A stretch of 64,000 bases of DNA from an uncultured Eubacteriales bacterium. Lineage in GTDB: Bacteria; Acidobacteriota; Aminicenantia; Aminicenantales; Saccharicenantaceae. The notes beneath the pieces were generated by a model. That model worked only from the letters and a program-made list of their open reading frames with translations. It had not been told where the DNA came from and made no database searches. Below are positions 1-33,149 of the stretch, one piece after another. The first letter of the stretch is position 1; the number at the start of each line of letters is the position of its first letter. The position numbers and the translations under genes were made by a program. The stretch spans positions 2,894 to 66,893 of the forward strand of contig CAZKFD010000006.1 in the NCBI GenBank assembly GCA_964551995.1, in the 5' to 3' direction.

Positions 1-2
1 GG

Positions 3-626: not shown

Positions 627-751
627 ACGCCGAAAAGCCGCCCGCCCCGGCCTGCCCATTCCTCCGTCCGCCCCTCTGCAGGCCTGCCCCGCCGGAACAT
701 CCCCGCCCCGTTTTGCCTTAAACGCCCGGACGGCGGTCGGCGTATTCTCTA

Positions 752-1324: not shown

Positions 1325-1775
1325 CCTCTTTTACGCCGCGATCCCGTCGCGGACCGTCCGGGATTGGCTTATCCGTGGCCACGCGGACGGATGCGAGCGC
1401 TGCCGGGCCCGGCTCGCGAGCCGGGAAGAAGCCCGGGCTCTGCTCGTCAAACCCGAGGACGCTGGGGCGCCAGGTGACTTGTGGCGCCTCGTCGAGCCGC
1501 AGAGTGTCTGGGCGGCGGTTCCGGCGGCTCCGGAAAGGCCGTCCGGGCGCCGCAGGGAGTGGGCCGCCGGCGCGGCCGCGTTTCTCGTCTTCGCGGCGGC
1601 CGGCTTCTGGCTTCTCCGCGGCCTCCAGAACGGAAGACCCGAGGCCGGGGCCGCGCGAGTCACGGTGCCCTTCGAAATCAACTATATCAACGTGGGCGGA
1701 TCGCCCGCCCAAACGTTCATCTATCAGCCCCAGGGATCGGACATGATCATCATCTGGGCGGAAAGGACATCCTGA
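1302..1775 (+). CDS. Anti-sigma factor with ZAS-type zinc motif and one TM helix
   Basis: Overlaps the sigma gene 3' end by 23 nt. Has an H-x3-C-x2-C motif (HADGCERC) near the N-terminus and a central hydrophobic helix (WAAGAAAFLVFAAAGFWLL). This is the classical position for the cognate anti-sigma. Confidence 0.7.
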   Translation: MAFCKIVDLFYAAIPSRTVRDWLIRGHADGCERCRARLASREEARALLVKPEDAGAPGDLWRLVEPQSVWAAVPAAPERPSGRRREWAAGAAAFLVFAAAGFWLLRGLQNGRPEAGAARVTVPFEINYINVGGSPAQTFIYQPQGSDMIIIWAERTS

Positions 1776-1795
1776 ATTCTGATGGAGGTGTCACT

Positions 1796-3928: not shown

Positions 3929-3934
3929 TGCGGA

Positions 3935-4324
3935 TTATTTCTTCAACCCGAGGACCCAAGATTTGAGGACCTCGATGTCCGCTTTGGGCATCTTCCTAAG
4001 GCGGGGCATTCGGGCTCCGGTGATGCCCGGAGCGCCCAAGATCTTCTTCAGCAGGTAGCTCGATTCCGGGTTTTCCGCGTCGATGATCTTGAGCGACTGG
4101 ACCTCCCGACTCGGCGCGCCGACGGCTTCGAGGATCTTGTCCGGCGAGAGGTTCAGGCTCTCGGCCGCCTCCGCGCCGCTGTGGCACTCGACGCAGCGCT
4201 TCTCAAGGACCGCCGCCACGTTATCGGAGACGCTCAGGGGCGTCTTCTGGGCGGCCGCAAAGAGCGCCGCGCCCAGGGCGGCGAGAACGGCTGAGCCGGC
4301 GATTAGGACTGCTGTCTTTCTCAT
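3935..4324 (-). CDS. Small secreted c-type cytochrome domain protein
   Basis: N-terminal signal/TM segment (MRKTAVLIAGSAVLAALGAALFAAA) and a single CxxCH haem-binding motif (CVECH). Lies 10 nt downstream of the preceding minus-strand gene. Confidence 0.55.
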   Translation of the reverse strand: MRKTAVLIAGSAVLAALGAALFAAAQKTPLSVSDNVAAVLEKRCVECHSGAEAAESLNLSPDKILEAVGAPSREVQSLKIIDAENPESSYLLKKILGAPGITGARMPRLRKMPKADIEVLKSWVLGLKK

Positions 4325-4334
4325 TTTCCCATCC

Positions 4335-5129
4335 TCATTTCATGCCCGAATATTTCAACTCGGACCCCAGAACGCTGTGCGGGATCAGGAAAACGATGAG
4401 GGTGGCGGCGGAGGCTGTGAGGACCGCGCTGCGGGCGGGGCGGCCCTTCCGGCCGGCGATGACGGCCGCGAGCCAGAAAAGGAAGGCGAAGAGGGTCTTG
4501 CTGTCGGTCAGGTCCGTCCCCAAGGGGAAGCCGCTCCAGAACGTGCCGAAAGCATATCTCTGGACGAGCGGCCCGAATACGAATCCACCCAAAAAGATCA
4601 GGACCAGCGCCCCGAGGGCGAAGCGCCGCGGGTTCCGTTCCCGGTCGAGAGCCGCGAGGCCGGCGGCCGTCGAGGCCAGCATTCCCCCGAACATCACCAC
4701 GATGTGGATGAAGAGCAGGAGAAGGGGGACCGGCTCTTTGAAGCGGATGACGACTGGCTTGTCTCCCGTGATCGAAGCCGTCCGGCCCCCAGAAACGACG
4801 AACACGCGATAAGCCAGCTTTCCGGCCGCGGGCTGCTTGGGCAGGAACCCGACGAGCTCCATGCCCTGTCGAGCGAAGTCCGCACGCCTCCACGGCTCGG
4901 CCGACTCATAGTGGCGGTATTCGAGATAGGCCTCGGCGCGCGCGGGCAGGGGCAGCCGGACAACCGCGTCCGTCGTGCTCTCGGCGCTCCGCGGAAGCTC
5001 GATGTGAACGGCCCGGCTCTCGACGACGGCCGTGACCCTCTGCGGGTGAGTCGGACCCGTCATCCTTTGAAAGACGGCCGAAGCCAGCGTGACGGCCACG
5101 GCCAGAAGCCAGAACGGGAGCTTCTTCAT
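4335..5129 (-). CDS. Membrane protein of unknown function (signal peptide, ~120-aa extracytoplasmic domain, ~4 TM helices)
   Basis: Clear codon bias, an N-terminal signal sequence and four hydrophobic segments in the C-terminal half. No family motif recognised. Confidence 0.5.
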   Translation of the reverse strand: MKKLPFWLLAVAVTLASAVFQRMTGPTHPQRVTAVVESRAVHIELPRSAESTTDAVVRLPLPARAEAYLEYRHYESAEPWRRADFARQGMELVGFLPKQPAAGKLAYRVFVVSGGRTASITGDKPVVIRFKEPVPLLLLFIHIVVMFGGMLASTAAGLAALDRERNPRRFALGALVLIFLGGFVFGPLVQRYAFGTFWSGFPLGTDLTDSKTLFAFLFWLAAVIAGRKGRPARSAVLTASAATLIVFLIPHSVLGSELKYSGMK

Positions 5130-5153
5130 GCGCCTTTTCCTTGAGTCAGACTA

Positions 5154-5845
5154 TCATCGGATGGTGATGGAACCGAAGACGGCCGAGGCGTGGAGGTGAA
5201 GCGTGCCCGCCGCCGCGCCTTGGTCCGGGGCCGGCCTTTTCTGCTCGATGGTGCCGAGAAACGGGGCCCCTTCGATGACGACCCGCCAATCGGGCCTGAC
5301 CCGAAGTTCGATCGACCCCAGCACGGCCGAGACCGCCAGGACGGCACGGCCGCCTTCGAGCCCCGCACCGGTGAGGTCGATTTCGGCGTTGCCCAGCACG
5401 ACCTCCACCGTCCCGCCCCTGAAGTTCGCGGATGTGACGCGGCGCGACGTTCCGGACAAGGCCTGCGAGATCCGGAACTCGTCGGCGGTCAGCTCAGGGG
5501 TTTTTTTTTACCCGCCGCCAAGGCCGGCCAAATCAGGATCCAGATGCCCATGCCTATGATGACGAGGGGCCAGAAATAATGCCAGGCGGTGTGGTTGAAG
5601 ATCCGGATGCGCATCAGGAGGAAGAAGGCCCCGAACAGGATGAAGAAAACGCCGGGCCCGACGTTCTGAAAATTGTTGCCGAGGATGATCGCGACGCCGA
5701 TGAGGATGAAGACGACGGGCCAGTAGCGGCTGAAGAGGTAGCCGAAGTTCAGCTGCCCCATCTGGTCGAGCAGGAAAAGGACGCCGATCCCGACGAGGAC
5801 GAGCCCCCAGAAGATGCGGCCCAGCGGTCCCTTCGAAGCGGCCAT
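5154..5845 (-). pseudogene. LiaF/YvqF-like cell-envelope stress protein split by a frameshift at an A9 homopolymer
   Basis: ORF 5489..5845 encodes only the 4-TM N-terminal module. ORF 5154..5459 encodes the LiaF-type C-terminal domain (GTVEVVLGNAEIDLTGA...VLGSIELRVRPDWRVV). The downstream frame stays open back through the A9 run (T9 on the plus strand, ~5500-5508), so a 1-nt length change fuses both halves. Confidence 0.6.
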
Positions 5846-5901
5846 CGTTCCCTCCTTCGCGGCCAGGATACCAGAAACTTCTCCTTCTGTAAACCGAAGG
5901 A

Positions 5902-6035
5902 GGGATGGGGATGAGGGCCGTCCGGCTCCCCCGCGCTAGCGCTCCCCCGGGAACCAGTCCCGTCGGTTCCCCCGTCGGAAGCCGACGGGACCCCCTCCGC
6001 TACGGGGGTTCCCGGACGGCCCTCATCCCCATCCC
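5902..6035. repeat. 134-bp nested palindromic element in a divergent intergenic region
   Basis: Perfect 24-nt arms: GGGATGGGGATGAGGGCCGTCCGG (5902-5925) and CCGGACGGCCCTCATCCCCATCCC (6012-6035). Inner inverted repeats are also present (CCGGGAACC/GGTTCCCGG, GTCCCGTCGG/CCGACGGGAC). Confidence 0.75.
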
Positions 6036-6157
6036 AATAAAAGGATAAGCCTTAAAGGGTTGATATGTTCGAAGCGGCGGCACGCCCGCGGCTTGAAAGC
6101 CCTTTTCCGGCGTGATATACATTCCGGCGGCGGGCCGCTCGCCGAAAGGAGGACGCC

Positions 6158-7402
6158 ATGGCAGAAGACCGCATCGTCATCGATCACGCGGCCGTCCTGG
6201 ACGTCGTCGCCGGAAAGCTCCTGCCCGACAGGCGCGTCATCGTCCGGGGGGCGGCGATCGAAGCCGTGGAGCCGGCGTCCACCCCAGGCGTTCCGGGGAG
6301 CGCGGCCCCGGCCGGAGCTGCCGTGATCGACGTCCGGGGAAAAACCGTCATGCCGGGCCTGTGCGACGCGCACGTCCATGTCACCGCCTGGTCGGCCGCT
6401 CCATCGGACCTCGCGCGGAGCTCGCCGTTCTACACGGCCGCGCGGGCCGCCGCTATTCTAAACGCGATGCTCATGCGGGGCTTCACCACCGTCCGCGACG
6501 CGGGCGGCGCGGACTTCGGCCTGGCTCTGGCCGTGCAGGAGGGCCGGATCGTCGGGCCGAGGACCCTGTTCTGCGGCCGCGGACTGTCCCAGACGGGCGG
6601 CCACGGCGACGGCCGCGCCCGCGGCGAGGATGTCCTTGAGGGCGTGGGTTCGGCGGCCACCCTCAGCCGGATCTGCGACGGGGTCGATGCCGTCCGCCTC
6701 GCCTGCCGGGATGAGATCCGCAGGGGGGCGAGCCACATCAAGCTCATGCTCTCGGGCGGAGTCGTTTCGCCCACCGACCGCCTGACGAACGCCCAGTTCT
6801 CCGAGGCCGAGATTCGCGCCGCCGTCGAGGAAGCCGAGATGGCCGGCCTGTATTGCATGGCCCATACCTACACCGCCCGGGCCGTGAACCGGGCCATCGC
6901 CTGCGGCGTCCGCTCGCTCGAACACTGCAACCTCATCGACGCGAACAGCATCGAGCTGTTCGTGAAGCACGGGGCCTGGATGGTTCCCACACTGGCGACC
7001 TATGAAGTTCTCGGGAGCGAGGGGGGGTACCTCGAAGACGTCCTGGCCAAGCTGGCGGAGGTGAAGGACAACGGGCTTCGCGCCCTGGCCATGGCCTACC
7101 GGGGAGGGGTCAAGCTCGCCTATGGGACGGACCTCCTCGGCCCGATGCATCGGCACCAGCTCCGGGAGTTCGCCATCCGGGCGGCCGTCCAGCCGGCGGC
7201 TGAGATCATCCGCGCTGCCACGTGCTACGCGGCCGACCTTTTCTGCGAGACCGGCCGGACGGGCATCGTCGCGGCTGGAGCGCGCGCGGACCTCCTCGTT
7301 GTCGACGGCGACCCTCTCGAGGACCTCGGCTGCCTCCAGGACCCCGAGAAACGTCTCCTGGCGATAATGAAGGGAGGCGTCTTCTATAAGAACCGGCTTT
7401 GA
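6158..7402 (+). CDS. Amidohydrolase-superfamily metal-dependent hydrolase
   Basis: HxH metal motif after beta-strand 1 (VMPGLCDAHVHV). Later His/Asp ligand contexts (HIKLMLSGG, CMAHTY, AYGTDL). ~414 aa, typical for the family. Confidence 0.85.
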   Translation: MAEDRIVIDHAAVLDVVAGKLLPDRRVIVRGAAIEAVEPASTPGVPGSAAPAGAAVIDVRGKTVMPGLCDAHVHVTAWSAAPSDLARSSPFYTAARAAAILNAMLMRGFTTVRDAGGADFGLALAVQEGRIVGPRTLFCGRGLSQTGGHGDGRARGEDVLEGVGSAATLSRICDGVDAVRLACRDEIRRGASHIKLMLSGGVVSPTDRLTNAQFSEAEIRAAVEEAEMAGLYCMAHTYTARAVNRAIACGVRSLEHCNLIDANSIELFVKHGAWMVPTLATYEVLGSEGGYLEDVLAKLAEVKDNGLRALAMAYRGGVKLAYGTDLLGPMHRHQLREFAIRAAVQPAAEIIRAATCYAADLFCETGRTGIVAAGARADLLVVDGDPLEDLGCLQDPEKRLLAIMKGGVFYKNRL

Positions 7403-7537
7403 GCCTCGAAGGGACAGGACTGACTTTCCTCCTCGCGCGATCGGCCAGTCCTGAGGCCGGATTTTCGGACGATCGTCGTCGGCTCGCCGCGGAGGTTCCG
7501 CCCGGAAGTCCCGGCCTGCGCGCCGGCCGGCGCGGCT

Positions 7538-8350
7538 CTAGAGCCGCCGGATGTTCATGCCGCCGCTGACTTCGATGACCGCGCCCGTCGAGAAGGCGAA
7601 GGCACCCCTGGCGAGGGCGGCCACGGCCTTCCCCACGTCCTCGGGCTGTCCCCACCGTGCCTGCGGCACGAACCCGTCGGCGATCAGCAGGTCATACTTG
7701 GCTTTGACCGGCGCGGTCATGTCCGTGGCGATGATTCCCGGCCGGATTTCGTAGACGGCGATGCCGACAGGAGCCAGGGCATCCGCGAAGAGGGTCGCGG
7801 CCATGCTCAGCGCGGCCTTGGAGATGCAGTATTCCGCGCGGGACGGCGAGGAAGTCACCGCGCTCACGGAGGTGATGAAGATGATCGACGGCGGGACGAT
7901 GTCCCCGCCGGTCCTCTGGGCGCTCATCCGCCGCGCCACGTTCTGCGTCAGGAAAAACGTCCCTCTCGCGTTGACGTTCAGAACCCGGTCGAAGCTCGCC
8001 GGCGTCGTCTCCAGGACGTTCAGCCGCTTTTCGGGCGCGACCCCGGCGTTGTTGATGAGGCAGTCCACGCGACCGAATCTTTCGAGGACCGCCTCGACAG
8101 CCCGGTCGTGCTCGACGATCGCGGCGATGTCGCAGCGGACGGGGAGGAAGCGCCGCCCCAGGCGCTCCACGCGGCCCTTGACCTCGAACAGGCCTTTCTT
8201 CCTATTCCGCGGCTCGAATACGATGTCGACGCCCGCGATATCGAAACCCGTCCGGGCGAGCGCAAGGGCCGCGGCCCTCCCGATTCCCTGCCCCGCCCCA
8301 GTGACTAGGGCGACGGGCCTTCCGGCGGTGCGCGTCTTGGGCACGGTCAC
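7538..8350 (-). CDS. Short-chain dehydrogenase/reductase (SDR) family oxidoreductase
   Basis: TGxxxGIG dinucleotide motif (VTGAGQGIGRA), NNAG, and catalytic YxxxK (YCISKAA). The GTG start overlaps the stop of the upstream gene (GTGA). Confidence 0.9.
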   Translation of the reverse strand: MTVPKTRTAGRPVALVTGAGQGIGRAAALALARTGFDIAGVDIVFEPRNRKKGLFEVKGRVERLGRRFLPVRCDIAAIVEHDRAVEAVLERFGRVDCLINNAGVAPEKRLNVLETTPASFDRVLNVNARGTFFLTQNVARRMSAQRTGGDIVPPSIIFITSVSAVTSSPSRAEYCISKAALSMAATLFADALAPVGIAVYEIRPGIIATDMTAPVKAKYDLLIADGFVPQARWGQPEDVGKAVAALARGAFAFSTGAVIEVSGGMNIRRL

Positions 8351-10365
8351 TCCTCCTCGCGGACGATCCTGTCGTTTAGAAAATCGTTCCAGACGTTTTC
8401 AAACCAGCTCTCGCCCTCGGGAAGCGGCCGGACGGCAACCCATTCCTTCTTAATCTTGCCGCGCGCGTCGAGCCCGATCTCCAGGATGTTCCGGCTGACG
8501 AAATCGCCGTCGGCGGCGAGCGAGAATTTCCATCGGGGGTCGAGGCCGGGGCAGGGGAGGCAACCCTCGGCGTCCGGGACGAGGAAGGAGCCGCGGCTCC
8601 TCCCGCCGCGGTCGAGATATTCCCGGACGGCCTCGAGATAGATCGCATGCGTCAGAGCAAGGTCCAGGAGACGAAAGGCCGCGGGGAGCGCGCGGAAAGA
8701 GGAAACGCGAAGGTCGCGCCTGAGCCGTTCGACGAGGGTCCAAGCCCGCGGCGTCTCGCGGCGGACGTCCGCGGGATTCCGCACAGGCCCGCCGCAGGCC
8801 GACATCCGGTCGCGGATCTCGTCCAGCGCCTCCTCCAGGAGTCGCGGGCTGCCTCCCGCCTCGCCGGCGAGCCTTCGGGCGAGGGCGTATTTTTCCGCGA
8901 CGCGCGTCCGCGCCAGCCGGGCGAACTCGTCCGCCGGCGGGGGCCCGTCCGCATATCTTCTCGCGATGAAGCGGGCCGCCCGCAGGCTCCCGACCTGCCC
9001 GGAGTTCAGGGCCGCGCCTCCAGGCCGGCGGACTCCGTGCGTGCCGTTGGCCTCGCCGACCGGGAAGAGATGGCGGAGGCCGGATTCCCACCAGATGTTG
9101 CCCTGGAATCCGCCGTTGTTGTGCTGCGCGCAGACGGCGGCTTCGAGCGGTTCCCGGCGGAGGTCGATGCCGTGCCCGCGGAAGAGCTCGACCGCCGGGC
9201 GATTCATCTTGAAGAGGCGGGCGATGGGGGTCGGGAGCAGGGCGCCCGATTTCTCCAGATAGGCCAGCGCCTCGGGGGCCAGGAGGCCGAGATCGAAGTC
9301 CCGAAGCTTTCCGGCCCCCGACGGGTTGCAGCGGTAGTCGAGAAAGACGCGCCGTCCCCGGACGACCGTCTCCTCGTAGACAAGGATGTCGATGAGCGAC
9401 GACCCGTAGTCGAGCGCCCGGTCCGGGTCGAAGGGCCACTCGTAGCCCTTGAGGAAGATGGCCGTGGCGAGCTTCCCCATGTCGGGGAAATGATCGTTCA
9501 GGAATTCCCGCTCGCCGCCGCCGTCGCGGTCGGTCGAAAAATAGCGGGGCACGGCCTGCTGGTAGGTGCCCGAGAGGTTCCAGCGGAACTTGACGGCGGC
9601 GATCCCGTACTGTGATTCCGTGATGTTGCCGGCCACGGCCCCGGCCTCGAACGCGAGGCCGTGGGAGCCCGTTTGCCCCGCGGGATAGACCGAGTGGCGG
9701 TAGAGGCCGCCCGGCCCTCCTGTCGCCAGCACGACGTTGACGGCGTTGAAGAGGACGAAGCCCAGGTTCTTCGAGGCGAGTTTTTCGGCGTCCAGGGCGA
9801 CGGCCCCGATGACGCGCTTCCTTCGTCCCCGGCCCGCGGAGAGCAGCGCGATCACCCCGTGACGGTCGAAAACCGGAATCTTCTTTCGCTTGGCCTCCCG
9901 CTCCAGCGCCTCGACCATGAGGCGGGAAGTGAGGGGCCCGGCCGACGTGGCCCTCTGCCGCGGGTCGTTGTCGGACTTGTAGCCCACGAAGGCTCCGTAC
10001 TTGTCCTGGGGGAAGGGAACGCCCAGGCCGGCAAGGTGGAGGAAGGCCTCGACCGAGTTCTGGGCTTCGCACAGGGCGATGTCTCCGTGCATCGAGCCCC
10101 CGGCGGCGAGGTCCCGGGCCATCTCGAACGGCGAGTCGGCCCGGTCGCCGGCGAGCGAGAGTTTGTAGTACGTCTGCTTGTCGGAGCCGGAGTTACGCGA
10201 GGCCCCGCCGCCGGCACGGTCGGTGGCGATCGCGACGTCGGTTTGGCCCTCGTCATGAAGGCGGACGGCGGCATTGAGCCCGGCCGCTCCGCTGCCGATG
10301 ACGAGCGTGTTCAGGGAATAGACGGGGTACGATACCCCGCCGACACGCACCCGCGTTTTCTTCAT
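8347..10365 (-). CDS. FAD-dependent oxidoreductase (fumarate reductase / L-aspartate oxidase-like flavoprotein fold)
   Basis: N-terminal GxGxxG (LVIGSGAAGLNAAVRL) and the ATGG/ANGTHG-type FAD contacts of this fold. I place the start at ATG 10365, which forms an ATGA overlap with the upstream stop, rather than at 10479. Confidence 0.75.
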   Translation of the reverse strand: MKKTRVRVGGVSYPVYSLNTLVIGSGAAGLNAAVRLHDEGQTDVAIATDRAGGGASRNSGSDKQTYYKLSLAGDRADSPFEMARDLAAGGSMHGDIALCEAQNSVEAFLHLAGLGVPFPQDKYGAFVGYKSDNDPRQRATSAGPLTSRLMVEALEREAKRKKIPVFDRHGVIALLSAGRGRRKRVIGAVALDAEKLASKNLGFVLFNAVNVVLATGGPGGLYRHSVYPAGQTGSHGLAFEAGAVAGNITESQYGIAAVKFRWNLSGTYQQAVPRYFSTDRDGGGEREFLNDHFPDMGKLATAIFLKGYEWPFDPDRALDYGSSLIDILVYEETVVRGRRVFLDYRCNPSGAGKLRDFDLGLLAPEALAYLEKSGALLPTPIARLFKMNRPAVELFRGHGIDLRREPLEAAVCAQHNNGGFQGNIWWESGLRHLFPVGEANGTHGVRRPGGAALNSGQVGSLRAARFIARRYADGPPPADEFARLARTRVAEKYALARRLAGEAGGSPRLLEEALDEIRDRMSACGGPVRNPADVRRETPRAWTLVERLRRDLRVSSFRALPAAFRLLDLALTHAIYLEAVREYLDRGGRSRGSFLVPDAEGCLPCPGLDPRWKFSLAADGDFVSRNILEIGLDARGKIKKEWVAVRPLPEGESWFENVWNDFLNDRIVREEE

Positions 10366-11708
10366 CGCCGCGGCGGCCCTTCTTGGAGATCGGCCCCGCG
10401 GTACTCCGGGTCCCTGACGACGCACCCGACGGGTCTTTGCTGGCGGAGAAGATGCGAACAGAGCGAGCACGTCGTGCACACCTTGCGGGAGATGAGCCGG
10501 CCCTTATTCTCCAGGTCCCGCGGGTAATCGGGATAGGCCAGGGCGCCTCGGCCCAGGCCGATGATCGAGGTCCGGCGGCCGCGGACCATGGCCGCGCCGA
10601 CGTTCGGAAAGAAGCCGCGCAGCCAGGAATAGCCGGCGCCGACGACGGCCATTCCGGGCGACGCCCTCTGGATCTCGGCGGCGAAGGTCAGGTGCCGGGC
10701 CACGCCCTCGAGCGGGTGCTCGTCGGGGACGGCGCCGCCGGGGACGGGCTTGTCGAAGGGCCGGCCGAAATGGGACTTCCAGGCCGGGATTCCCATAGAC
10801 AGGGCGAGAATCCGCACGCCTTCCTGCCCGAGCCTGAAGACCAGCTCCTTCGGCTCCTTGAGGTTCGGCCTGTTCCGCCTGTTCGGGTCCATGCCGAAGC
10901 CGTAGGGAAAGGGGACGATGTCGGCGACGCTGAGGCGGCTCGTCACGAGGAGGCGCGGGACCTCCTCCCGGATCCGGCGGACCGTTTCGAGAAGAAAGCG
11001 CGTCCTGTTCTCGAACGAGCCCCCGTAGCGGCTTCCCGTCCTGGTAAACGCGGCCAGCAGCTCCGAGACGAGGTAGCCGTGGCAGGCCTTGATGTCCACG
11101 CCGTCGAAGCCGGCCGCGGAGGCGAGGTCGGCGGCGTTGACGAAATCGTCCTGAATGGCCTCGAGCGCTTCGTCGGAGAGGAGCGACGTCTCGGCTCCGA
11201 GCCCGTGGAGGGGGTCGAGGACGGGGCTGTGGTGCACGATCTGCGGCTCGGGCTTCCCCCCGGGCTTGGCGAAGCGGCCGGAGTGGGTGAGCTGGAGGAT
11301 GAGGAGGAGCTCCCGGCCTTCGCCCCGTTCTCGGGCCGCAGCCGACCGTACCCGTGCGGCGAGCTGCCGGAAGGCGGCCTCGGTCTCGTCCGTGAGCATG
11401 AGCTGGTGGGGGTTCGAGCGCCCGTCGGGCCGGACGGCGGTTGCTTCGACCCAGACGGCGCCGCTGCCCCCGGCCGCGTATCTTTCGTAGCGCCGGAACG
11501 TCCATTCCGTCGGCGACCCGTCCGGGGACGCGTCGGCCGCCTCCATCGGCAGGACGGCGAACCGATTTCGGAGCCGGCGGCCGGCGACGGAAACCGGTTC
11601 GAGCAGGACGGCGGGGTCGTCGGCGAACGGGATGTCGAGGCCGAGCTCGCGGACCTTCCCGAGGAGCTCGTCCGCATCGCGGAAGGCGAACCTCTCGTGG
11701 GCGGCCAT
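10362..11708 (-). CDS. Old Yellow Enzyme-family NADH:flavin oxidoreductase with a C-terminal Cys cluster
   Basis: TIM-barrel OYE signatures (LQLTHSGRF, DIKACHGYLVSELL). C-terminal CxxCxxC...C motif (CTTCSLCSHLL...VGC), like the Fe-S site of dienoyl-CoA-reductase-type OYEs. Confidence 0.8.
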   Translation of the reverse strand: MAAHERFAFRDADELLGKVRELGLDIPFADDPAVLLEPVSVAGRRLRNRFAVLPMEAADASPDGSPTEWTFRRYERYAAGGSGAVWVEATAVRPDGRSNPHQLMLTDETEAAFRQLAARVRSAAARERGEGRELLLILQLTHSGRFAKPGGKPEPQIVHHSPVLDPLHGLGAETSLLSDEALEAIQDDFVNAADLASAAGFDGVDIKACHGYLVSELLAAFTRTGSRYGGSFENRTRFLLETVRRIREEVPRLLVTSRLSVADIVPFPYGFGMDPNRRNRPNLKEPKELVFRLGQEGVRILALSMGIPAWKSHFGRPFDKPVPGGAVPDEHPLEGVARHLTFAAEIQRASPGMAVVGAGYSWLRGFFPNVGAAMVRGRRTSIIGLGRGALAYPDYPRDLENKGRLISRKVCTTCSLCSHLLRQQRPVGCVVRDPEYRGADLQEGPPRR

Positions 11709-11712
11709 AGGG

Positions 11713-12708
11713 CTATTTCACCCCCTGGGCGACGATCCTCCGGACGGCCCGGAGGCCGCGCTGGACGCGCCGCTCGCAGATCTCCGGCCAGCGGTCCCGG
11801 GCCACGGCGGCGAGCTTCTTTTCATCCTTCAGGGCGCGGCTCTTCGCGGCGAGGCCGAGGAGCCGGGCCAACTCGGCCACCGTGACATCCGGGAACCGCA
11901 GCAGGAATTCGGGGTCAAAGACGGGGAGCAGGAAGTCGCCGGCGTGGTCCTCGAGGGAGAGGTTGACCGTTCGGGGGACGGTCGAGAGCCTCTCGAAGAT
12001 CGCGGCGAAATCGACGACTCCGGCCCCCGCCTCGGCCGTGAAGGACACGAATCCCTCCGGCGTGAGCAGGAGGCCGCCGTCTTTGATGTGGGTCGTCACG
12101 ACCCAGGGCAGGAGCCGCTCGGCGGCGCTCGCGGGGTCTTCGAGCATGGTCAGGAGGTTCATGGTGTCGAGGCAGATGCCGACGGTCTCGCCGGGGCTCG
12201 CGCCGCACATGTCGAAGAGGCGGAGGAGCTCGAAGGACGTGAACTCGACGTGGGTCTCGATGGCCAGGGCGACGCCCGAGTCCCTGAGCATCGGGCGCTG
12301 TTCCCGCAGGCTCGCGGCGGCGAGCCTGAGGAGTTCCTCCGTCGCAGGAGAGTCCTTCTTCCAGCGCATCAGACCGCCCGAACAGGACCGCACGGTGTGG
12401 ACGCCCAGGATGCGGGCCTCGGCCGCGGCCCTCCTGTTGACGCTGACGATGTCCTTCTTCTTGCCCGTGGCCAGGTCGAGCGGGATGTGCTGGCCTCCGC
12501 CCCACTCGACGTACAGCCCGTTTTCCGAAGCGTAGCTCCTGAGGTCCTCCAGCATGGCCTTGTCGGGCGGGGAGGAGGCAGGCGGGGCGCCTTCGGAGAA
12601 CTGGACGCCGTCGGCCCCGTTGATAATCGCCCACTCCAGGAGCTCGAAGGGAGAAAGGTCGAGGGGCTTGAGGCTGTAGCTGTCGACCCCGACCTTGAAG
12701 GGCTTCAT
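11713..12708 (-). CDS. Sugar phosphate isomerase/epimerase (xylose-isomerase-like TIM barrel)
   Basis: Start at ATG 12708 (MKPFKVGVDSYSL) is preceded by GGGAGG. Family-typical blocks are present (LAIETH, ICLDTMN, HIKD). The 547-aa listed ORF extension runs antisense through the corrinoid gene and is rejected. Confidence 0.75.
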   Translation of the reverse strand: MKPFKVGVDSYSLKPLDLSPFELLEWAIINGADGVQFSEGAPPASSPPDKAMLEDLRSYASENGLYVEWGGGQHIPLDLATGKKKDIVSVNRRAAAEARILGVHTVRSCSGGLMRWKKDSPATEELLRLAAASLREQRPMLRDSGVALAIETHVEFTSFELLRLFDMCGASPGETVGICLDTMNLLTMLEDPASAAERLLPWVVTTHIKDGGLLLTPEGFVSFTAEAGAGVVDFAAIFERLSTVPRTVNLSLEDHAGDFLLPVFDPEFLLRFPDVTVAELARLLGLAAKSRALKDEKKLAAVARDRWPEICERRVQRGLRAVRRIVAQGVK

Positions 12709-12853
12709 TTCGGCCTCCCGGTCCGCGCCCTCATCATAACAGAATCCCGAGACCGTCCACAAGGAACTCGCGCCGGCCACCCCGAATTCTTGACAAGCGA
12801 CGGCGAATTGTTGTGAGATAGGGCGAACCCAGGAGCGTGCGAGGAGAGGCGAG

Positions 12854-13477
12854 ATGCTCAATGAGATGCAGGAAGCGCTCATCGCGGGGAAGAAGGCCGA
12901 CGTCGAAGCCCTGGTCGGGCGGGCCCTCGACTCCGGGCTCGCGGCGGCCAAAATCCTCAACGAAGGCCTGATCCCGGGCATGGAGCGGCTGGGCGAGATG
13001 TTCAAGAACAACGAGGTCTTCATCCCCGAAGTTCTCGTCGCCGCCCGGGCCATGAACGCCGGCCTGGCCAAGCTCGAGCCGTTCCTGATCAAGGACAAGG
13101 TCCAGCCCAAGGGTGTCGTCGTCATCGGGACGGTCAAGGGGGACCTGCACGACATCGGGAAGAACCTCGTGGCCATGATGCTCCGCGGCAACGGATACAA
13201 GATCGTCGATATGGGCATCGACGTGTCTCCGGAAAAATTCGTCGAGGCGGCGCGGACGAACGGCGCCAGCATCGTGGCCTGCTCGGCGCTGCTGACGACG
13301 ACCATGGTCCAAATGAAAAATGTCGTCGCCGCCATGGGGCAGTCGGGGCTCAACATCCCGGTCGTGATCGGCGGAGCGCCCGTGACAAAGGAATACGCCG
13401 ACCAAATCGGGGCCGGAGGCTACGCGCCGGACGCAGCCAGTGCGGTCGAAGAAGTCGGCCGGCTCCTGGGCCTCTGA
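12854..13477 (+). CDS. Cobalamin-binding corrinoid protein (methyltransferase cognate corrinoid protein, MtaC/MtbC-like)
   Basis: B12-binding DxHxxG motif (GDLHDIGKNLV), SxL (SALLTTT), GG (VIGGAP) and the N-terminal four-helix cap. ~207 aa. Confidence 0.9.
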   Translation: MLNEMQEALIAGKKADVEALVGRALDSGLAAAKILNEGLIPGMERLGEMFKNNEVFIPEVLVAARAMNAGLAKLEPFLIKDKVQPKGVVVIGTVKGDLHDIGKNLVAMMLRGNGYKIVDMGIDVSPEKFVEAARTNGASIVACSALLTTTMVQMKNVVAAMGQSGLNIPVVIGGAPVTKEYADQIGAGGYAPDAASAVEEVGRLLGL

Positions 13478-13525
13478 GGCCCGCCGCCCCGGCGGCCCGA
13501 ACACTTGGGGGGCCCGAACGTAGAC

Positions 13526-14530
13526 ATGACGCCCCGCGAGCTCGTCATCAGCTCCTTGGAGTTCCGGTCTCCCCCGCGGGTCCCTCGCCAGCTCTGGCTC
13601 CTTCCCTGGGCGGAGCTGACGTATCCGCGCGAGCTGGCGGACATCCGCAGGAGATATCCCGACGACATCGTCAAGTGTCCCCCTTTCCTGAGGAAGCCCC
13701 TCAGGACCGTCGGCGAAGAATACGGCGTCGGGCTTTTCGTCGACGAGTGGGGCTGCCGCTTCGAGAACAGGCAGTGGGGCGTCATCGGCGAGGTCAAGGA
13801 CCCTGTCCTCAGGGACTGGCAGGACTTGGATAGCCTGCGCCTGCCCGAAGAGCGCCTGAGCGTCGACCCGGACCGCGTCGACGAGTTTTGCGCCTCGACG
13901 GATGTTTTCGTCCATTCCTGGGCCTCCGTCAACCCCTTCGAGCGGCTCCAGTTCATCCGCGGCCCCGAGAACCTGTACGTCGACCTGGCCGAACGGTCCG
14001 ACGGGCTCTTCCGGCTCCTCGGACTGCTGCACGCGTTCTTCAAGGAGGAGCTCGAGCTCTGGGCGTCGACGGACGTGGACGCCCTTTTCTTCGCAGACGA
14101 TTGGGGGAGCCAGAAATCGCTTCTCGTCTCGCCGGGCCTCTGGCGCGAGGTTTTCAAGCCGCTCTATCGCGAGTATGTCGAGATCGCCCACCGCAAAGGG
14201 AAATACGCCTTCATGCACAGCGACGGCTACATCATGGACATCTACCCCGACCTCGTCGAGATCGGGGTCGACGCCGTCAATTCCCAGATCTTCTGCATGG
14301 ACGTGGCGGAGATCGGCCGCCGCTTCGCCGGACGGCTCACGTTCTGGGGGGAGGTCGACCGGCAGCAGCTGCTGCCCTATGGGACGCCCGCGCAAGTCGC
14401 GGCCGCGGTCCGGACGGCCGGAGGGGCCCTGTGGAGGAGGGGAGGCGCCATCGCCCAGTGCGAGTTCGGCATCGGGGCCCGGCCGGAGAACGTGGCTGCG
14501 GTTTTTGAGGCGTGGAATAATATTGTATAA
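13526..14530 (+). CDS. Uroporphyrinogen-decarboxylase (UroD/MtaA) family methyltransferase-like protein
   Basis: UroD-fold size and block order (RVPRQLW near the N-terminus, FADDWGSQ, HSDGYI). Sits immediately downstream of the corrinoid protein. ATG 13526 is preferred over the listed TTG 13505. Confidence 0.75.
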   Translation: MTPRELVISSLEFRSPPRVPRQLWLLPWAELTYPRELADIRRRYPDDIVKCPPFLRKPLRTVGEEYGVGLFVDEWGCRFENRQWGVIGEVKDPVLRDWQDLDSLRLPEERLSVDPDRVDEFCASTDVFVHSWASVNPFERLQFIRGPENLYVDLAERSDGLFRLLGLLHAFFKEELELWASTDVDALFFADDWGSQKSLLVSPGLWREVFKPLYREYVEIAHRKGKYAFMHSDGYIMDIYPDLVEIGVDAVNSQIFCMDVAEIGRRFAGRLTFWGEVDRQQLLPYGTPAQVAAAVRTAGGALWRRGGAIAQCEFGIGARPENVAAVFEAWNNIV

Positions 14531-14604
14531 TATTCGTCTAAAGGCAAGAAGGAGATTGCGCGGATGCCATCGAAAACGCCGCGATGTGACACCAGGAGGT
14601 GGCT

Positions 14605-15453
14605 ATGACACGGAAACTGATCGCGCTTCCCGTCATCCTGGCGATGGTCGGGGTCCTCGCGGCCCCCGGCTGGGCCAAGGAAACGACCATCGACAGCCGG
14701 TGGGCCCCCGTGCCCATCCGGGTCGACGGAAACGACCAGGACTGGCAGAATGTAACTCTTCTGACCGACGAGGAGTCCGGGGCGCAATACGCCCTCGAGA
14801 ACGACGGCCGTAACCTTTACATCCTCTTCATCTTCCGGGATGTCATGTCGGCGTCCACGATCGACTACACGGGGATGAAGATCTTCTTCGACACCGCAGG
14901 CCGGAAGAGCAAGGACCTCGGGATCTCTTTCACGAGGAGAGACGTTAAGCCCGACGAGCTCATCGCCGCACTCGAGAAGAAGGGAGAGGTCCTGACCGAC
15001 GAGAGGAAGGCCGAAATCCGGAAGCAGAGATCCTATCATCTCTTTGAAGCCGGCGTCATCAACAAGAAGAAGGTCCCGGCCCCGACGGACCCGGCCTTCA
15101 AGAATGAGCCGCCCATGTATGCGGCGGGCGTCCAGCACCAGGCGCGCGTCTACGAGTTCCGCATTCCCCTCAGCCGCGTCAACGAGGCCGGCGGGATCGG
15201 CTCCGAGCCCGGCAAGACCATCAAGCTCGGCTTCGAGTGGGGCGGTCTGACCTCTCAGGCCATGAGGGCCATGATGGCCGACGAGTCCGCTGGGGGAGGC
15301 GGAGCCCGGCAAGATCTCGGCATATCCGGCTCCATAAGTCCCGAAATGGCGACCGCCGGCGGTATCGGCGGCAGCGCCGATTTGCAGCGCGATCCCCGGA
15401 CGCGCCTCCATTCCTTCTGGATCGACGTCAAGCTGGCCGCCAACGGGTCCTGA
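14605..15453 (+). CDS. Secreted protein of unknown function
   Basis: AGGAGG lies 5 nt upstream of ATG 14605. Signal peptide (MTRKLIALPVILAMVGVLAAPGWA). A VDGNDQDW segment is reminiscent of CBM9/DOMON-like modules, but this is tentative. Confidence 0.5.
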   Translation: MTRKLIALPVILAMVGVLAAPGWAKETTIDSRWAPVPIRVDGNDQDWQNVTLLTDEESGAQYALENDGRNLYILFIFRDVMSASTIDYTGMKIFFDTAGRKSKDLGISFTRRDVKPDELIAALEKKGEVLTDERKAEIRKQRSYHLFEAGVINKKKVPAPTDPAFKNEPPMYAAGVQHQARVYEFRIPLSRVNEAGGIGSEPGKTIKLGFEWGGLTSQAMRAMMADESAGGGGARQDLGISGSISPEMATAGGIGGSADLQRDPRTRLHSFWIDVKLAANGS

Positions 15454-15513
15454 TCTTCGCCCTATTGAAGGTTCGGCGGTTTCCCGGGAGACCAGGAAAA
15501 TAAGGAGGGTATC

Positions 15514-16059
15514 ATGCCGCGCCGCATCCCCGATGCCCTGACCGTCATCCGCTCCCGGAGGAGCGTCCGTGAATTCACCGGGGAGCCGGTGTCCCGCAAG
15601 GACCTCGAGACGATCCTCCGGGCGGCCATGGCCGCGCCGTCCGCGGTCAACTGCCAGCCCTGGGCGTTCGTCGTCGTCACCGAAAAAGCGGCCCTGAACG
15701 CGCTGGCCGACGGCCTGCCTTACGCCCAGATGCTGCGGCGGGCCGGGGCCGGCATCGTGGTCTGTGCCGTTGTGGAGAAGGCCTTCAACAAGATGGCCGA
15801 GTTCGCCCTCATCGACAGCTCCCTGGCCGCCGGGAACATCCTCTTGGCCGTCGAAGCCCTGGGCCTCGGCGGGGTCTGGACGGCGGCCTATCCCGACATG
15901 GGCAAGGCCGCCTTCGTCCGTGAGGCCCTGCACATCCCGACGGACGTGATCCCGCTGGCCGTCATCCCCATCGGCCATCCGGCCGGGTCCGACGCGCCTA
16001 AGGACAAGTTCAAGGCGGAGAACATCCACTGGGAGCGCTGGAGCACGCGCGCCCTATAG
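15514..16059 (+). CDS. Nitroreductase family protein
   Basis: RRSVREF motif near the N-terminus, SAVNCQPW, ~180 aa. AAGGAGG lies upstream. Confidence 0.85.
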   Translation: MPRRIPDALTVIRSRRSVREFTGEPVSRKDLETILRAAMAAPSAVNCQPWAFVVVTEKAALNALADGLPYAQMLRRAGAGIVVCAVVEKAFNKMAEFALIDSSLAAGNILLAVEALGLGGVWTAAYPDMGKAAFVREALHIPTDVIPLAVIPIGHPAGSDAPKDKFKAENIHWERWSTRAL

Positions 16060-16971
16060 CGGCCGGGCCGCAAGGAAGGCCCCGAGGAAAGCCAGCACGA
16101 CGGCGGCGGCCTTCCCCAGGCTCAGCTGTTCTTTCAGGAAGAAAGCCGCGAGGACGACGATAAAGATCGTGTTCAGCTGATTGAGGGCCGCCGCGACCGA
16201 GGCTTGGGCGAACTTCATGCCGCCCATCCAGAGGATCAGGGACAGATAGGAACCGAAAAACGAGGCGGGGACCATCGCCTTCCAGTTGGCCATCCGGAGC
16301 AGGGGTTCGAGGATGGCTCGGCGTCCGGGCAGGAGGGGGACCACCACGAGGAGCGGGACGGCGCCGCCGACGAGGCGGATGAGCGTCGCCGAGATCACCG
16401 ATTCCTCCGCCAGGACGGGCTTGGCGATGACGATCCCGACGGCGACGAAGAACATCGAGAGCACGCCGTAGACGAGCCCGAGAACGAGGTCGCTACCCTC
16501 GATCCGCGGGCCGTCGTGGTCGGACCGGGAGGCTCCCAGGACGCCGAAGATGATCAGGGCAACGCCCGTCAGCTGCCAGGCCGCCATGTGCTCGCCCAGA
16601 AGGATGGTGGACAGGGCGATGACGAAGGGGCTGTACATGCAGTCGACGACGGCGACGAGGCTCGCCCCCAGCCTGTTGAGGCTGTAGAAGAAGAGCGTGT
16701 CGGAGACGGCGATCCCGAGGAAGCCGCTGAGCAGGAGGATCCAGAGGGAGTGCGATGAGATGCCCGGGCGCAGCGGCTCGCCGAGGATGACGATGGTCGG
16801 GACCGTGAAGCCCAGCGCGAGGACATTTTTGAAGAGGTTGAGGCCGAGGGGATGGACCGTCCGGCCGCTGATCCTGTAAAGGATGACGGCCACCGCCCAG
16901 ACGACGCCCGAAGAGACCGCCAGGACTTCGCCGAGCGAGTGGAAGCTGCGGAGCGAATCGAAGAACGCCAT
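16054..16971 (-). CDS. DMT-superfamily (EamA-type) transporter
   Basis: ~10 predicted TM helices arranged as two similar halves. 305 aa. Confidence 0.8.
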   Translation of the reverse strand: MAFFDSLRSFHSLGEVLAVSSGVVWAVAVILYRISGRTVHPLGLNLFKNVLALGFTVPTIVILGEPLRPGISSHSLWILLLSGFLGIAVSDTLFFYSLNRLGASLVAVVDCMYSPFVIALSTILLGEHMAAWQLTGVALIIFGVLGASRSDHDGPRIEGSDLVLGLVYGVLSMFFVAVGIVIAKPVLAEESVISATLIRLVGGAVPLLVVVPLLPGRRAILEPLLRMANWKAMVPASFFGSYLSLILWMGGMKFAQASVAAALNQLNTIFIVVLAAFFLKEQLSLGKAAAVVLAFLGAFLAARPL

Positions 16972-17459
16972 TGCGGATCTTGTCTCCTCGAGGGCCGGAC
17001 GAAAAACGAGTTCCCTTTATACCAGAGAAACCGCCCTGGGTCAAAACCCCAGAATTTCCTCCGCCACCCGCGCTCCTCGCACGGCCGCCTTCTCAGGGAA
17101 GGGCAGAAACATCCGGTTTATATCAACGAACTTTGGAATATAATTTCGATGGTTCCCCGCCATAAGGAGCTCGAGGACTTTCTGGTACGAAAGATCGGCC
17201 GGGATCTTGAGATTGCCGATCATCCGAAACGCGGTCTCCGGCTTCGGGATTCCTCTCGCCGGGGAACAGGAAGCCTGCCTTTATTGACCGCCGCGGGACG
17301 GGCGTGCTATAAACGGGGCTGATCGCGACGCGATGAATCGAACGAAGAGCTCCTCCATGAAAAAATCCCGCGTCCTGATCCTGGCGGCCGTGGCCGCTTA
17401 CTGGAAGCTCGCCGGGGAGATCTGGGTCAGGTATTCGGGCAATTTTTGATTATAATTAT

Positions 17460-17591
17460 GGGGACACAATACTCATTTCCGAATTTCCTCCTGCCAGGCG
17501 CCTCTGCGCCAGCCATCCTTCTCAGTCGTTTCTCGTCGGACGCAGGAGCGTGCCTCGGCGCAAGAAATCGGGAAAAGAGTATTGTGTCCCC
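17460..17591. repeat. MITE-like inverted-repeat element, copy A (132 bp)
   Basis: Left end GGGGACACAATACTCATTTCCGAATTTC (17460-17487). Reverse complement of the right end (17564-17591) is GGGGACACAATACTCTTTTCCCGATTTC. Ends 22 nt upstream of the symporter start codon. Confidence 0.8.
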
Positions 17592-17613
17592 AAATTAGCG
17601 CAAATTAGCGATC

Positions 17614-28133: not shown

Positions 28134-28271
28134 TTCCTAATTTCTTCGGCCGGCGGAGGCGCGACTCTCATTTCCGGCCCCTCCCGGCGCCCCCTCGGCG
28201 TCATGGCGTCTCAGCCGGACGGCCCCGTTCCGGCCCCCTTGTCGAAATTCGGAAATGAGTATTGTGTCCCC
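28117..28271. repeat. MITE-like inverted-repeat element, copy B (155 bp)
   Basis: Left end GGGGACATAATACTCATTTCCTAATTTC (28117-28144). Reverse complement of the right end (28244-28271) is GGGGACACAATACTCATTTCCGAATTTC. Confidence 0.8.
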
Positions 28272-29488: not shown

Positions 29489-29501
29489 GTTTTCCGGCGG
29501 C

Positions 29502-33139: not shown

Positions 33140-33149
33140 TGTCAATCTC

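Follow-up and report, generated by a model that had tools for sequence, protein, structure and literature searches.

Corrinoid methyltransferases are known to act on aryl ethers, methylamines, methanol, methyl-thiols and quaternary amines, and are not known to act on carbohydrates. Anaerobic O-demethylases, such as Odm/Vdm of Acetobacterium dehalogenans, Mtv of Moorella and Mto of Methermicoccus, combine a UroD-superfamily methyltransferase (MT I), a corrinoid protein (CP), a second methyltransferase (MT II) and an ATP-dependent activating enzyme (AE) (PMC8630106). We analyzed a 64,000-nucleotide stretch of contig CAZKFD010000006.1 (hereafter the window) from an Aminicenantes metagenome-assembled genome (MAG; 2.99 Mb on 35 contigs), in which genes for a corrinoid protein and a UroD-fold protein lie divergent from a four-gene operon encoding a xylose-isomerase-like TIM barrel (XylTIM), an old yellow enzyme (OYE)-type flavoprotein, a FAD_binding_2 flavoprotein (the FAD protein) and a short-chain dehydrogenase/reductase (SDR; Table 1). 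Close relatives of the window proteins come from Candidatus Aminicenantes/Aminicenantales MAGs of peat, including that of the SPRUCE bog, and of sediments. We tentatively read the locus, at somewhat less than even chances, as a sugar-acid catabolic cluster with an accessory corrinoid demethylation module whose second methyltransferase (MT2) and activase are encoded elsewhere in the genome.

Like the O-demethylases, the window places a stand-alone corrinoid protein with a DxHxxG motif beside a UroD-superfamily enzyme, and the genome also encodes a methyl-tetrahydrofolate (methyl-THF):corrinoid methyltransferase and a RACo-type activase. Unlike in those systems, the four components are unclustered and lie on three contigs (CP and MT I candidate in the window, an MT II type on contig C35 and an AE on contig C4), and the UroD-fold enzyme matches no solved or curated member. 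The setting also differs, with carbohydrate and sugar-acid genes and a presumed aliphatic ether here in place of the aromatic catabolism or Wood-Ljungdahl pathway and aryl ether of the described enzymes.

An earlier note on this DNA, made from its letters alone, had tied the corrinoid/UroD pair to the flavoenzyme operon and proposed a survey of related genomes, with the two never co-occurring as the outcome that would speak against the tie. We found them together in other genomes, in other phyla and in other gene orders; most genomes compared were MAGs, and open reading frames (ORFs) in the relatives' loci were taken from tblastn plus simple ORF rules. The full divergent arrangement is present in many Aminicenantales genomes, and the loci of other phyla provide what we regard as the decisive comparative evidence for the link. 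A Phycisphaerales locus (L083) carries XylTIM-OYE-FAD-SDR-Corr-UroD on a single strand, followed by a sodium:solute symporter (SSF) gene. A Planctomycetota locus (L093) has the order OYE-FAD-SDR-[2-keto-3-deoxy-6-phosphogluconate (KDPG) aldolase/sugar kinase]-UroD-SSF-heparinase-II/III-like, and then Gfo-GH38-UroD (GH38, glycoside hydrolase family 38), the last UroD being of a second type. Gemmatimonadota show FAD-SDR-[aldolase/kinase]-[Corr-UroD fusion]-SSF (linked loci L086 and L092), and an Acidobacteriota locus (L130) has the four-gene operon and then Gfo and UroD.

Further comparison reveals that the two modules can be parted. The FAD protein occurs in 34 of 301 sampled Planctomycetota genomes, and the 20 loci examined there have, within about 9 kb, an SDR gene in 11 cases, an OYE gene in six, an aldolase/kinase homolog in six and a corrinoid, UroD-ortholog or XylTIM gene in none. 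Because corrinoid, UroD and XylTIM genes are absent from all 20 loci, FAD/SDR(/OYE) appears to be an autonomous module tied to genes of 2-keto-3-deoxygluconate (KDG) and KDPG metabolism, and the B12 module and XylTIM appear to be accessories gained in some lineages. Among 41 relatives of the host genome, 30 carry the corrinoid ortholog (at least 68% identity), 20 the FAD protein and 17 the UroD ortholog, and the corrinoid gene is kept in at least 10 Aminicenantales genomes without the FAD protein and in several relatives without the UroD ortholog. Decay in this order takes several forms: eight loci retain the corrinoid gene and the operon with UroD gone, three (L046, L051, L053) retain the corrinoid gene beside XylTIM only, with OYE, FAD and SDR lost, and six retain the corrinoid gene with only the genes for a secreted protein and an EamA-family transporter, while one paralogous corrinoid copy is flanked by MttB homologs. 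Genes inserted between the parts in relatives were checked for a missing methyltransferase and proved to encode MurJ, an S9 peptidase, a TPR protein, an outer-membrane-like protein, a phosphofructokinase and an SRPBCC-like membrane protein.

Partnership between the UroD-fold protein and the corrinoid protein is indicated by three independent observations on gene organization. In Aminicenantes, every locus with a UroD ortholog has the corrinoid gene next to it. The two genes are joined in frame, with no stop, in six Gemmatimonadota loci (L081, L086, L091, L092, L104 and L106) through a low-complexity linker of 45–80 residues rich in Pro, Ala and Ser, an architecture resembling that of CmuA; the 592-residue metagenomic protein P0121 has the same B12-binding_2/B12-binding/URO-D order. 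Finally, an Opitutae locus (L135) places the UroD ortholog directly downstream of a RACo homolog, within a methyltransferase island (positions 1–18000 of the MAG locus) that packs about eight UroD-fold genes of differing types, a corrinoid protein, the RACo homolog and a homocysteine methyltransferase into 18 kb. Because of this adjacency, these fusions and this RACo-linked locus, we infer that the two proteins work together. URO-D-fold gene counts follow the same trend across the relatives, which are related genomes and not independent samples: those lacking the corrinoid ortholog mostly have 0–2 such genes and those with it a median of about nine, with G021, G020, G032 and G039 as exceptions.

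The corrinoid protein itself is of a familiar kind. It matches PF02310 at 93 bits and PF02607 at 78 bits, has the motif D97-L-H-D-I-G and combines the cap and B12-binding domains of MtaC/MtbC/MtgC-type proteins; against NCBIfam TIGR02370 it scores 188 bits, just under the cut-off of 215. The genome has two stand-alone corrinoid proteins of the methyltransferase type, this one and one on C4, which are 43% identical to each other. A small B12-binding gene on contig C32 was judged irrelevant, as it lies directly beside a 547-residue gene that, by sequence and neighborhood, resembles an acyl-CoA mutase large subunit.

The UroD-fold protein is less familiar, and we placed it by curated models, a profile search of the PDB and fold comparison. 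Pfam URO-D (PF01208) matches at 41 bits over profile positions 144–344 only, the C-terminal half, and the scores against TIGR01463 (MtaA/MtbA/CmuA; 23.4 bits versus a cut-off of 235) and MtaA_Meth (17 bits versus 400) fall far short. Direct phmmer search found no PDB chain at E ≤ 1; a 64-sequence profile matched the MtaA-like structure 4ay7 (E = 3e-9) better than UroDs, for which E was 1e-4 or higher. The AlphaFold2 (AF2) model (pLDDT 95.8) has the (beta/alpha)8 barrel of the UroD/MtaA fold, with 4ay7 as its top Foldseek match (E = 5e-12, TM score 0.71) and UroD structures at TM scores of 0.62–0.70. The zinc motif H-x-C of MtaA (H-I-C in 4ay7) aligns with H231-S-D233, so that the H-x-C...C pattern is not present. 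H231 is invariant, and D233 is invariant in close orthologs and nearly so in wider alignments; Q-C312-E313 lies near the distal Cys of MtaA, with C312 and E313 kept only in orthologs of at least 52% identity. Assignment as HemE was rejected on the partial-length match; the best URO-D match in the genome (194 bits, profile positions 38–345), encoded on contig C25, is a likelier heme-pathway copy.

By these models the protein appears to form a new branch of the fold, neither an MtaA/CmuA family member nor HemE, and slightly closer to MtaA-like 4ay7 than to UroD in both profile and predicted fold. It is a candidate substrate:corrinoid methyltransferase (MT1), with methyl transfer and its direction suggested by family and context. 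With MtaA, MtbA, MtsA and CmuA it shares the fold, the best profile match, a corrinoid partner and, in the fused orthologs, a CmuA-like layout; unlike MtaA and CmuA, it has H-S-D...(C/E) where they have H-x-C...C, and its cluster has no RACo gene. Several paralogs occur per genome, which is also true of the Mlp clusters described by Kountz and Balskus, and where Mlp proteins are about 30% identical to MtaA/MtbA (PMC10418091), the window protein reaches no PDB chain by phmmer. The host genome has nine URO-D-fold genes, three of them in the window (13526–14530, 29502–30680 and a fragment near 34586–35068); its other UroD paralogs adjoin a GH38 gene, a GH78 rhamnosidase, a GntR/FCD regulator and a malectin-domain protein.

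Candidates for the remaining parts of a demethylation system were found outside the window. The earlier note had remarked that the locus lacks a second methyltransferase and a reductive activase, which is correct for the locus, yet both are encoded elsewhere (on C35 and C4), and the RamA-like activase that it suggested searching for exists in RACo form. There is no RACo/RamA gene in the window, and no gene of the cluster has the ferredoxin and ASKHA (PF14574) domains of such activases. The genome's single PF14574 gene lies on C4, where its product has Fer2 and the RACo linker, middle and ASKHA domains (227 bits). Relatives encode a RACo-type activase in 38 of 41 cases, as do four of the five genomes from other phyla that carry the cluster. 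The C4 operon, which includes the genome's single MttB homolog (local tblastn), resembles MtgBCD-type systems that lead from quaternary amines to methionine. Its logic is shared with MtgBCD of Ruegeria pomeroyi, a modular methionine synthase/glycine betaine demethylase (PMC12478193), and with MttB-family quaternary-amine systems. By analogy, it could offer a route from methyl-corrinoid to methionine that the carrier of the window could share, although the donor enzyme of the window, unlike theirs, has a UroD fold and not an MttB fold. A RACo gene with an adjacent corrinoid gene is near-universal in Aminicenantales.

On C35, a stand-alone methyl-THF:corrinoid methyltransferase (PRK07535, 275 bits versus an NCBIfam cut-off of 259) is divergent from a bifunctional homocysteine methyltransferase/methylenetetrahydrofolate reductase (MTHFR). 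No full-length MetH is evident in the genome, where no gene combines any two of the S-methyl_trans, Pterin_bind and B12-binding domains, a distribution that suggests a split, modular methionine synthase.

The two flavoproteins of the operon have recognizable folds and score far below curated cut-offs. The OYE protein (Oxidored_FMN, 113 bits) finds OYEs, FadH (1ps9) and trimethylamine dehydrogenase (1djq) in the PDB, and scores far below the NCBIfam cut-offs for BaiCD, bilirubin reductase and mycofactocin OYE models. It has a 4Fe-4S motif, C411-x2-C-x2-C-x11-C (CTTCSLCSHLLRQQRPVGC at residue 411), and reads K-A-C-H-G-Y where OYE1 has H-x-x-N-x-Y, with Lys replacing the first His of the substrate-binding pair. 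FadH, clostridial enoate reductases, BaiCD, bilirubin reductase and trimethylamine dehydrogenase likewise carry a Cx2Cx2-3Cx11-12C 4Fe-4S motif after their FMN TIM barrel. Unlike the FadH group, the window protein has no FAD/NAD(P)H domain, ends after the cluster at residue 448, has the Lys substitution and is coupled to a separate 672-residue FAD_binding_2 protein. The latter (PF00890, 64 bits; GSGAAG at residue 24, H415-NNGG and R447-PGGAAL) retains H-x-x-GG and R-x-GG-x-x-L, has no HP[TS] motif and scores far below the cut-offs of all equivalogs (TfrA, 82 bits versus 718; NadB, 75 bits versus 453). By score and motifs it lies outside the fumarate reductase, succinate dehydrogenase and L-aspartate oxidase families; its best PDB match is L-aspartate oxidase (E = 2e-9).

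By analogy with NADH:acrylate/fumarate reductases, the OYE protein, which has no NAD(P)H/FAD domain of its own, and the translationally coupled FAD protein probably form a two-subunit enzyme with the 4Fe-4S cluster as a wire. At one flavin site, electrons would pass to or from pyridine nucleotide or a second substrate, and a carboxylate-bearing C=C/C-C bond would be the target of the other site. The cytoplasmic NADH:fumarate/acrylate reductases combine the same OYE-like and FAD_binding_2 modules: in the ARD type of Vibrio harveyi, the OYE-like domain oxidizes NADH, and the FAD_binding_2 domain is where an alpha,beta-unsaturated carboxylate is reduced (bioRxiv 10.1101/2022.01.20.477176). Unlike the ARD type, the window system has two polypeptides, a 4Fe-4S cluster instead of a covalently flavinylated FMN_bind domain, and an FAD protein without HPT that is nearer to NadB/Sdh than to flavocytochrome c3.

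The remaining two proteins of the operon point towards sugars. XylTIM (AP_endonuc_2, PF01261, 69 bits) has invariant E151, H153, D181, H207, E253 and H255 and keeps the E-D-H-E metal ligands; its AF2 model (pLDDT 90.6) is closest to ketose 3-epimerases, the isomerase Art22, UlaE and IolI. These structures belong to enzymes that enolize beside a sugar carbonyl, and XylTIM is predicted to be metal-dependent. The SDR (adh_short_C2, 155 bits; TGxxxGIG and YxxxK present) exceeds the cut-off of NCBIfam PRK12745 (329 bits versus 250) and gives sub-cut-off scores with KduD models. A KduD-like SDR below threshold and an isomerase/epimerase-type TIM barrel recall the KduI/KduD and DEH-reductase routes from uronates to KDG as well as the DgpA/DgpBC, LgdA/LgdB and 3-keto-glycoside lyase pathways, in which glycosides or keto-sugars are processed with the help of oxidation by Gfo/Idh/MocA or SDR enzymes and TIM barrels of the xylose-isomerase kind. 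Genes for KDG kinase/KDPG aldolase are adjacent in other phyla. Unlike the KduI/KduD and Dgp/Lgd-type pathways, which have no Fe-S flavoenzymes or corrinoid module, the window locus has both, and it reaches no curated model of theirs.

Of the two ideas in the earlier note, a methylated sugar-like substrate fares better than the flavoenzymes as reductive activator, and is partly supported by the company that the genes keep in other genomes. The SDR ortholog adjoins a KDPG-aldolase/KDG-kinase fusion in L086, L093, L101, L138 and L139, and the KHG/KDPG-aldolase/sugar-kinase fusion found between SDR and UroD scores 884 bits against NF041633 (cut-off 700). Pathways for uronates and sugar acids classically end with the KDG/KDPG aldolase-kinase step. 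The most frequent neighbor of the UroD gene is an SSF-containing family of proteins of about 730 residues (17 of 63 non-Aminicenantes loci), in which SSF was confirmed by Pfam and tblastn in L081, L086, L092 and L093 rather than member by member; in L083, L086 and L093 the UroD gene is followed directly by the SSF gene. A Gfo/Idh/MocA gene stands beside UroD in 13 of the same 63 loci (neighbor clustering), and the order GH38-Gfo-UroD, with UroD of the 13526 type, recurs in 10 loci of other phyla. L093 has both UroD types within 10 kb, and Candidatus Aminicenans sakinawicola has SDR-aldolase/kinase-GH38-Gfo-UroD. Comparison thus links the window's second module, of GH38, a UroD-fold paralog and Gfo/Idh/MocA, functionally to the corrinoid/UroD cluster. 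Together with the heparinase-II/III-like gene, this context points to a sugar derivative; that it is methylated, and the roles of the flavoenzymes, we infer from context.

As a sugar-acid cluster with an accessory demethylation module, the locus might work as follows. The SSF symporter, and possibly the EamA transporter, would take up an acidic or keto sugar derivative, on which the two-subunit flavoenzyme (an OYE subunit with FMN and a 4Fe-4S wire, and a fumarate-reductase-like FAD protein) would act; XylTIM, of the ketose-epimerase/isomerase type, and the KduD-like SDR would serve the same route, and the product would be directed to KDG and KDPG aldolase. The corrinoid protein and the UroD-fold enzyme, as carrier and MT1, would remove a methyl group, most likely of an O-methyl ether, from the sugar or from a keto/enol intermediate. 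Methyl-corrinoid would then be unloaded by the methyl-THF:corrinoid methyltransferase of C35 or by the homocysteine methyltransferases of C4 and C35, and the carrier would be re-reduced by the RACo-type ATP-dependent activase of C4. This reading, with an MT2 and activase shared with the MttB system, fits most of the facts.

A more specific version, which we consider improbable, is a widespread anaerobic route in more than 10 phyla that cleaves carbohydrate methyl ethers by oxidation-assisted, B12-dependent chemistry. The SDR or a Gfo/Idh/MocA dehydrogenase, or else the FAD/OYE-FeS pair by alpha,beta-dehydrogenation, would act with XylTIM to produce a keto/enol form of the methylated sugar or uronate, so that the leaving group would be an enolate and not an alkoxide. 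Corrinoid Co(I), placed by the H-S-D UroD-fold enzyme, would accept the methyl group, the flavoenzyme pair would give the electrons back, the SDR would yield KDG, and the methyl group would be kept as methyl-THF or methionine and not lost as methanol. Speculatively, oxidoreductases and an enolizing TIM barrel would accompany the methyltransferase because the keto/enol form makes the methyl ether a good Co(I) substrate.

Several points weigh against a demethylation module serving the sugar-acid cluster. Nucleophilic demethylation is harder for aliphatic than for aryl ethers. The candidate MT1 falls below the MtaA/CmuA cut-off and has no H-x-C...C zinc motif, and about 50 of the 63 non-Aminicenantes UroD orthologs have no corrinoid gene within 7–10 kb. 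The FAD/SDR(/OYE) core stands without Corr, UroD and XylTIM in 20 of 20 Planctomycetota loci, which makes the two modules separable, and the Aminicenantales show piecemeal loss and housekeeping insertions (murJ, pfk, a peptidase) between the parts. Some of the linkage may be synteny by descent, and the corrinoid protein may serve the split methionine synthase as a general hub. A rival explanation is that the genes are neighbors by descent only: a self-sufficient sugar-acid operon beside the carrier of a split methionine synthase, into which the UroD-fold enzyme feeds methyl groups from an unrelated donor. Such an account, unlikely in our judgment but still of some weight, agrees with the distribution of methionine synthase domains over separate genes, with the 30 of 41 relatives that keep the corrinoid gene, at least 10 of them without the FAD protein and several without UroD, with the unrelated insertions and with the corrinoid-free Planctomycetota core, and it has a precedent in the stand-alone MtgC/MtgD that serve both methionine synthesis and betaine demethylation (PMC12478193). 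Descent within one order, however, cannot explain six genes that are colinear in Phycisphaerales and linked again, in other arrangements, in Gemmatimonadota, Planctomycetota and Acidobacteriota, and the corrinoid gene stays by XylTIM even where OYE, FAD and SDR have been lost (L046, L051 and L053).

It is doubtful, too, that the UroD-fold protein is no methyltransferase at all but a sugar enzyme, cofactor-independent or metal-dependent, that acts as decarboxylase, lactonase, dehydratase or epimerase in a GH38-Gfo-UroD pathway, with a corrinoid link limited to some lineages. Most orthologs outside Aminicenantes do sit in GH38-Gfo-UroD or UroD-SSF operons without a corrinoid neighbor, the zinc ligands of MtaA are replaced, and the fold is nearly as close to UroD as to MtaA; against this stand the in-frame fusions to a complete corrinoid module in six loci and P0121, the RACo homolog adjoining the UroD ortholog in L135, and the way in which URO-D-fold counts track the corrinoid ortholog. 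The proposal in the earlier note that the Fe-S/flavin enzymes next door are the reductive activator, in place of RamA/RACo, now seems very unlikely. In Aminicenantes they are encoded beside the corrinoid protein, they have flavins and an Fe-S cluster, and the window contains no competing activase, but RACo is present in the genome, in nearly all relatives and in most cluster-bearing genomes of other phyla. The flavoenzyme core also occurs next to KDG/KDPG genes without corrinoid genes, and corrinoid orthologs persist without flavoenzymes. Moreover, the Co(II)/Co(I) couple lies far below flavin potentials and its reduction is normally ATP-coupled. We give least credence to XylTIM as a cobamide-remodeling phosphodiesterase that tailors the corrinoid cofactor in the manner of CbiR, the known B12-related member of the PF01261 superfamily, 80% of whose homologs lie beside cobamide biosynthesis genes (PMC7733943). 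XylTIM shares the superfamily and remains beside the corrinoid gene in loci that have lost the rest of the operon, but no cobamide biosynthesis gene is found among the annotated window genes, its structural neighbors are ketose 3-epimerases/isomerases and not endonuclease IV-like, and translational coupling across a 4-nt gap joins its gene to OYE.

If a demethylation module does serve this cluster, such a B12-dependent enzyme for sugars would extend the corrinoid methyltransferases by a class of substrates and the UroD/MtaA fold by a new branch, and would tie glycan breakdown to one-carbon (C1)/methionine metabolism and B12 demand in abundant uncultured lineages. O-methyl sugars, including 4-O-methyl-glucuronate and methylated rhamnose, mannose and fucose, are common in plant, moss, algal and microbial glycans, and the only O-methyl-sugar demethylases of which we know are oxygen-dependent P450 enzymes; the locus may represent an undescribed oxygen-free demethylation of methylated sugars. 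Full-text literature searches gave no account of corrinoid-dependent carbohydrate demethylation or of this operon. Apart from the B12 module, the OYE-FeS/FAD_binding_2/SDR core appears by its distribution to be a widespread, uncharacterized two-subunit flavoenzyme system associated with KDG/KDPG genes.

Table 1. Features of the locus, its neighborhood and the related operons elsewhere in the genome. Positions are those of the window unless a locus is named.
Feature	Position	Strand	Assignment and remarks
353-amino-acid protein, no family	4083–5144	+	Beyond the SDR gene; Aminicenantales synteny at 30–47% identity
SDR oxidoreductase	7538–8350	-	Fourth and final gene of the operon; Pfam adh_short_C2
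FAD_binding_2 flavoprotein, 672 amino acids, Frd/Sdh/NadB-like	8347–10365	-	Pfam PF00890
OYE-type FMN barrel, 448 amino acids	10362–11708	-	Pfam Oxidored_FMN
Xylose-isomerase-like TIM barrel (XylTIM), 331 amino acids	11713–12708	-	First gene of the operon; Pfam AP_endonuc_2
Divergent spacer, 145 bp	12709–12853		Between XylTIM and corrinoid genes
Stand-alone corrinoid protein	12854–13477	+	B12-binding_2 cap and B12-binding domain
UroD-fold protein, 334 amino acids	13526–14530	+	Pfam URO-D
Secreted protein, no family, 282–284 amino acids	14599–15453	+	Signal-peptide-like N-terminus
EamA-family transporter	16054–16971	-	Pfam EamA, 118 bits; syntenic in nearly all related loci
SSF sodium:solute symporter, 701 amino acids	17614–19719	+	PF00474 (public gene call); NCBIfam sss superfamily, 102 bits
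Second module: GH38 alpha-mannosidase, UroD-fold paralog (29502–30680), Gfo/Idh/MocA	28211–33145	-	Pfam
C4 operon: amino-acid permease, RACo, 297-amino-acid homocysteine S-methyltransferase, second corrinoid protein, MttB-family methyltransferase	L001:5262–11541		
C35 pair: stand-alone methyl-THF:corrinoid methyltransferase and bifunctional homocysteine methyltransferase/MTHFR	L158:4146–6779		Divergent

The layout in Table 1 rests on an ORF listing and Pfam, with which an independent public gene call for the identical contig agrees. The six genes, their motifs, the 4-nt or overlapping junctions and the 145-bp spacer with its TTGACA box are as the earlier note had described them, and its gene identities held against Pfam, the motifs and the public call. 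Read directly, the XylTIM/OYE junction is TAG, 4 nt (11709–11712) and ATG; the OYE and FAD genes meet in ATGA (10362–10365), with the FAD-protein ATG overlapping the OYE stop, and the FAD and SDR genes in GTGA (8347–8350). The public gene call starts the SDR at a GTG 6 nt downstream, which replaces the overlap with a 2-nt gap. Two Aminicenantales genera have a phosphofructokinase-like gene between OYE and FAD (L040:7646–8899 and L044:11007–12212), and in L040 a membrane protein of about 328 residues lies there as well. On the other strand, the corrinoid and UroD genes are 48 nt apart, with the called UroD start at ATG 13526 and an alternative TTG at 13505.

Within the spacer, TTGACA (12790–12795) is oriented towards the corrinoid gene. 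The box, with GTGAGAT or TATGAT about 17 nt after it, recurs in the same position before the corrinoid gene in relatives. By alignment, L024 and L020 keep TTGACA-N16-17-(G/T)(T/A)GA(G/T)AT and an AGGAGAG ribosome-binding site, and L023 and L039 keep part of this. A consensus scan found no full sigma-70 promoter, and no Rfam match to a riboswitch or other RNA was obtained anywhere in the window; by alignment alone, the conserved -35-like box with a weak -10 looks promoter-like.

Among the neighboring genes, a 181-residue nitroreductase (15514–16059) was considered as BluB and set aside, since its score of 60 bits falls short of the 150-bit cut-off and no ortholog turned up in the related loci searched. 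The proteins encoded at 14599–15453 and 4083–5144 match no Pfam or NCBIfam family; across Aminicenantales few genes accompany the corrinoid gene as steadily as theirs, and they do so also in loci that have lost UroD and the operon.

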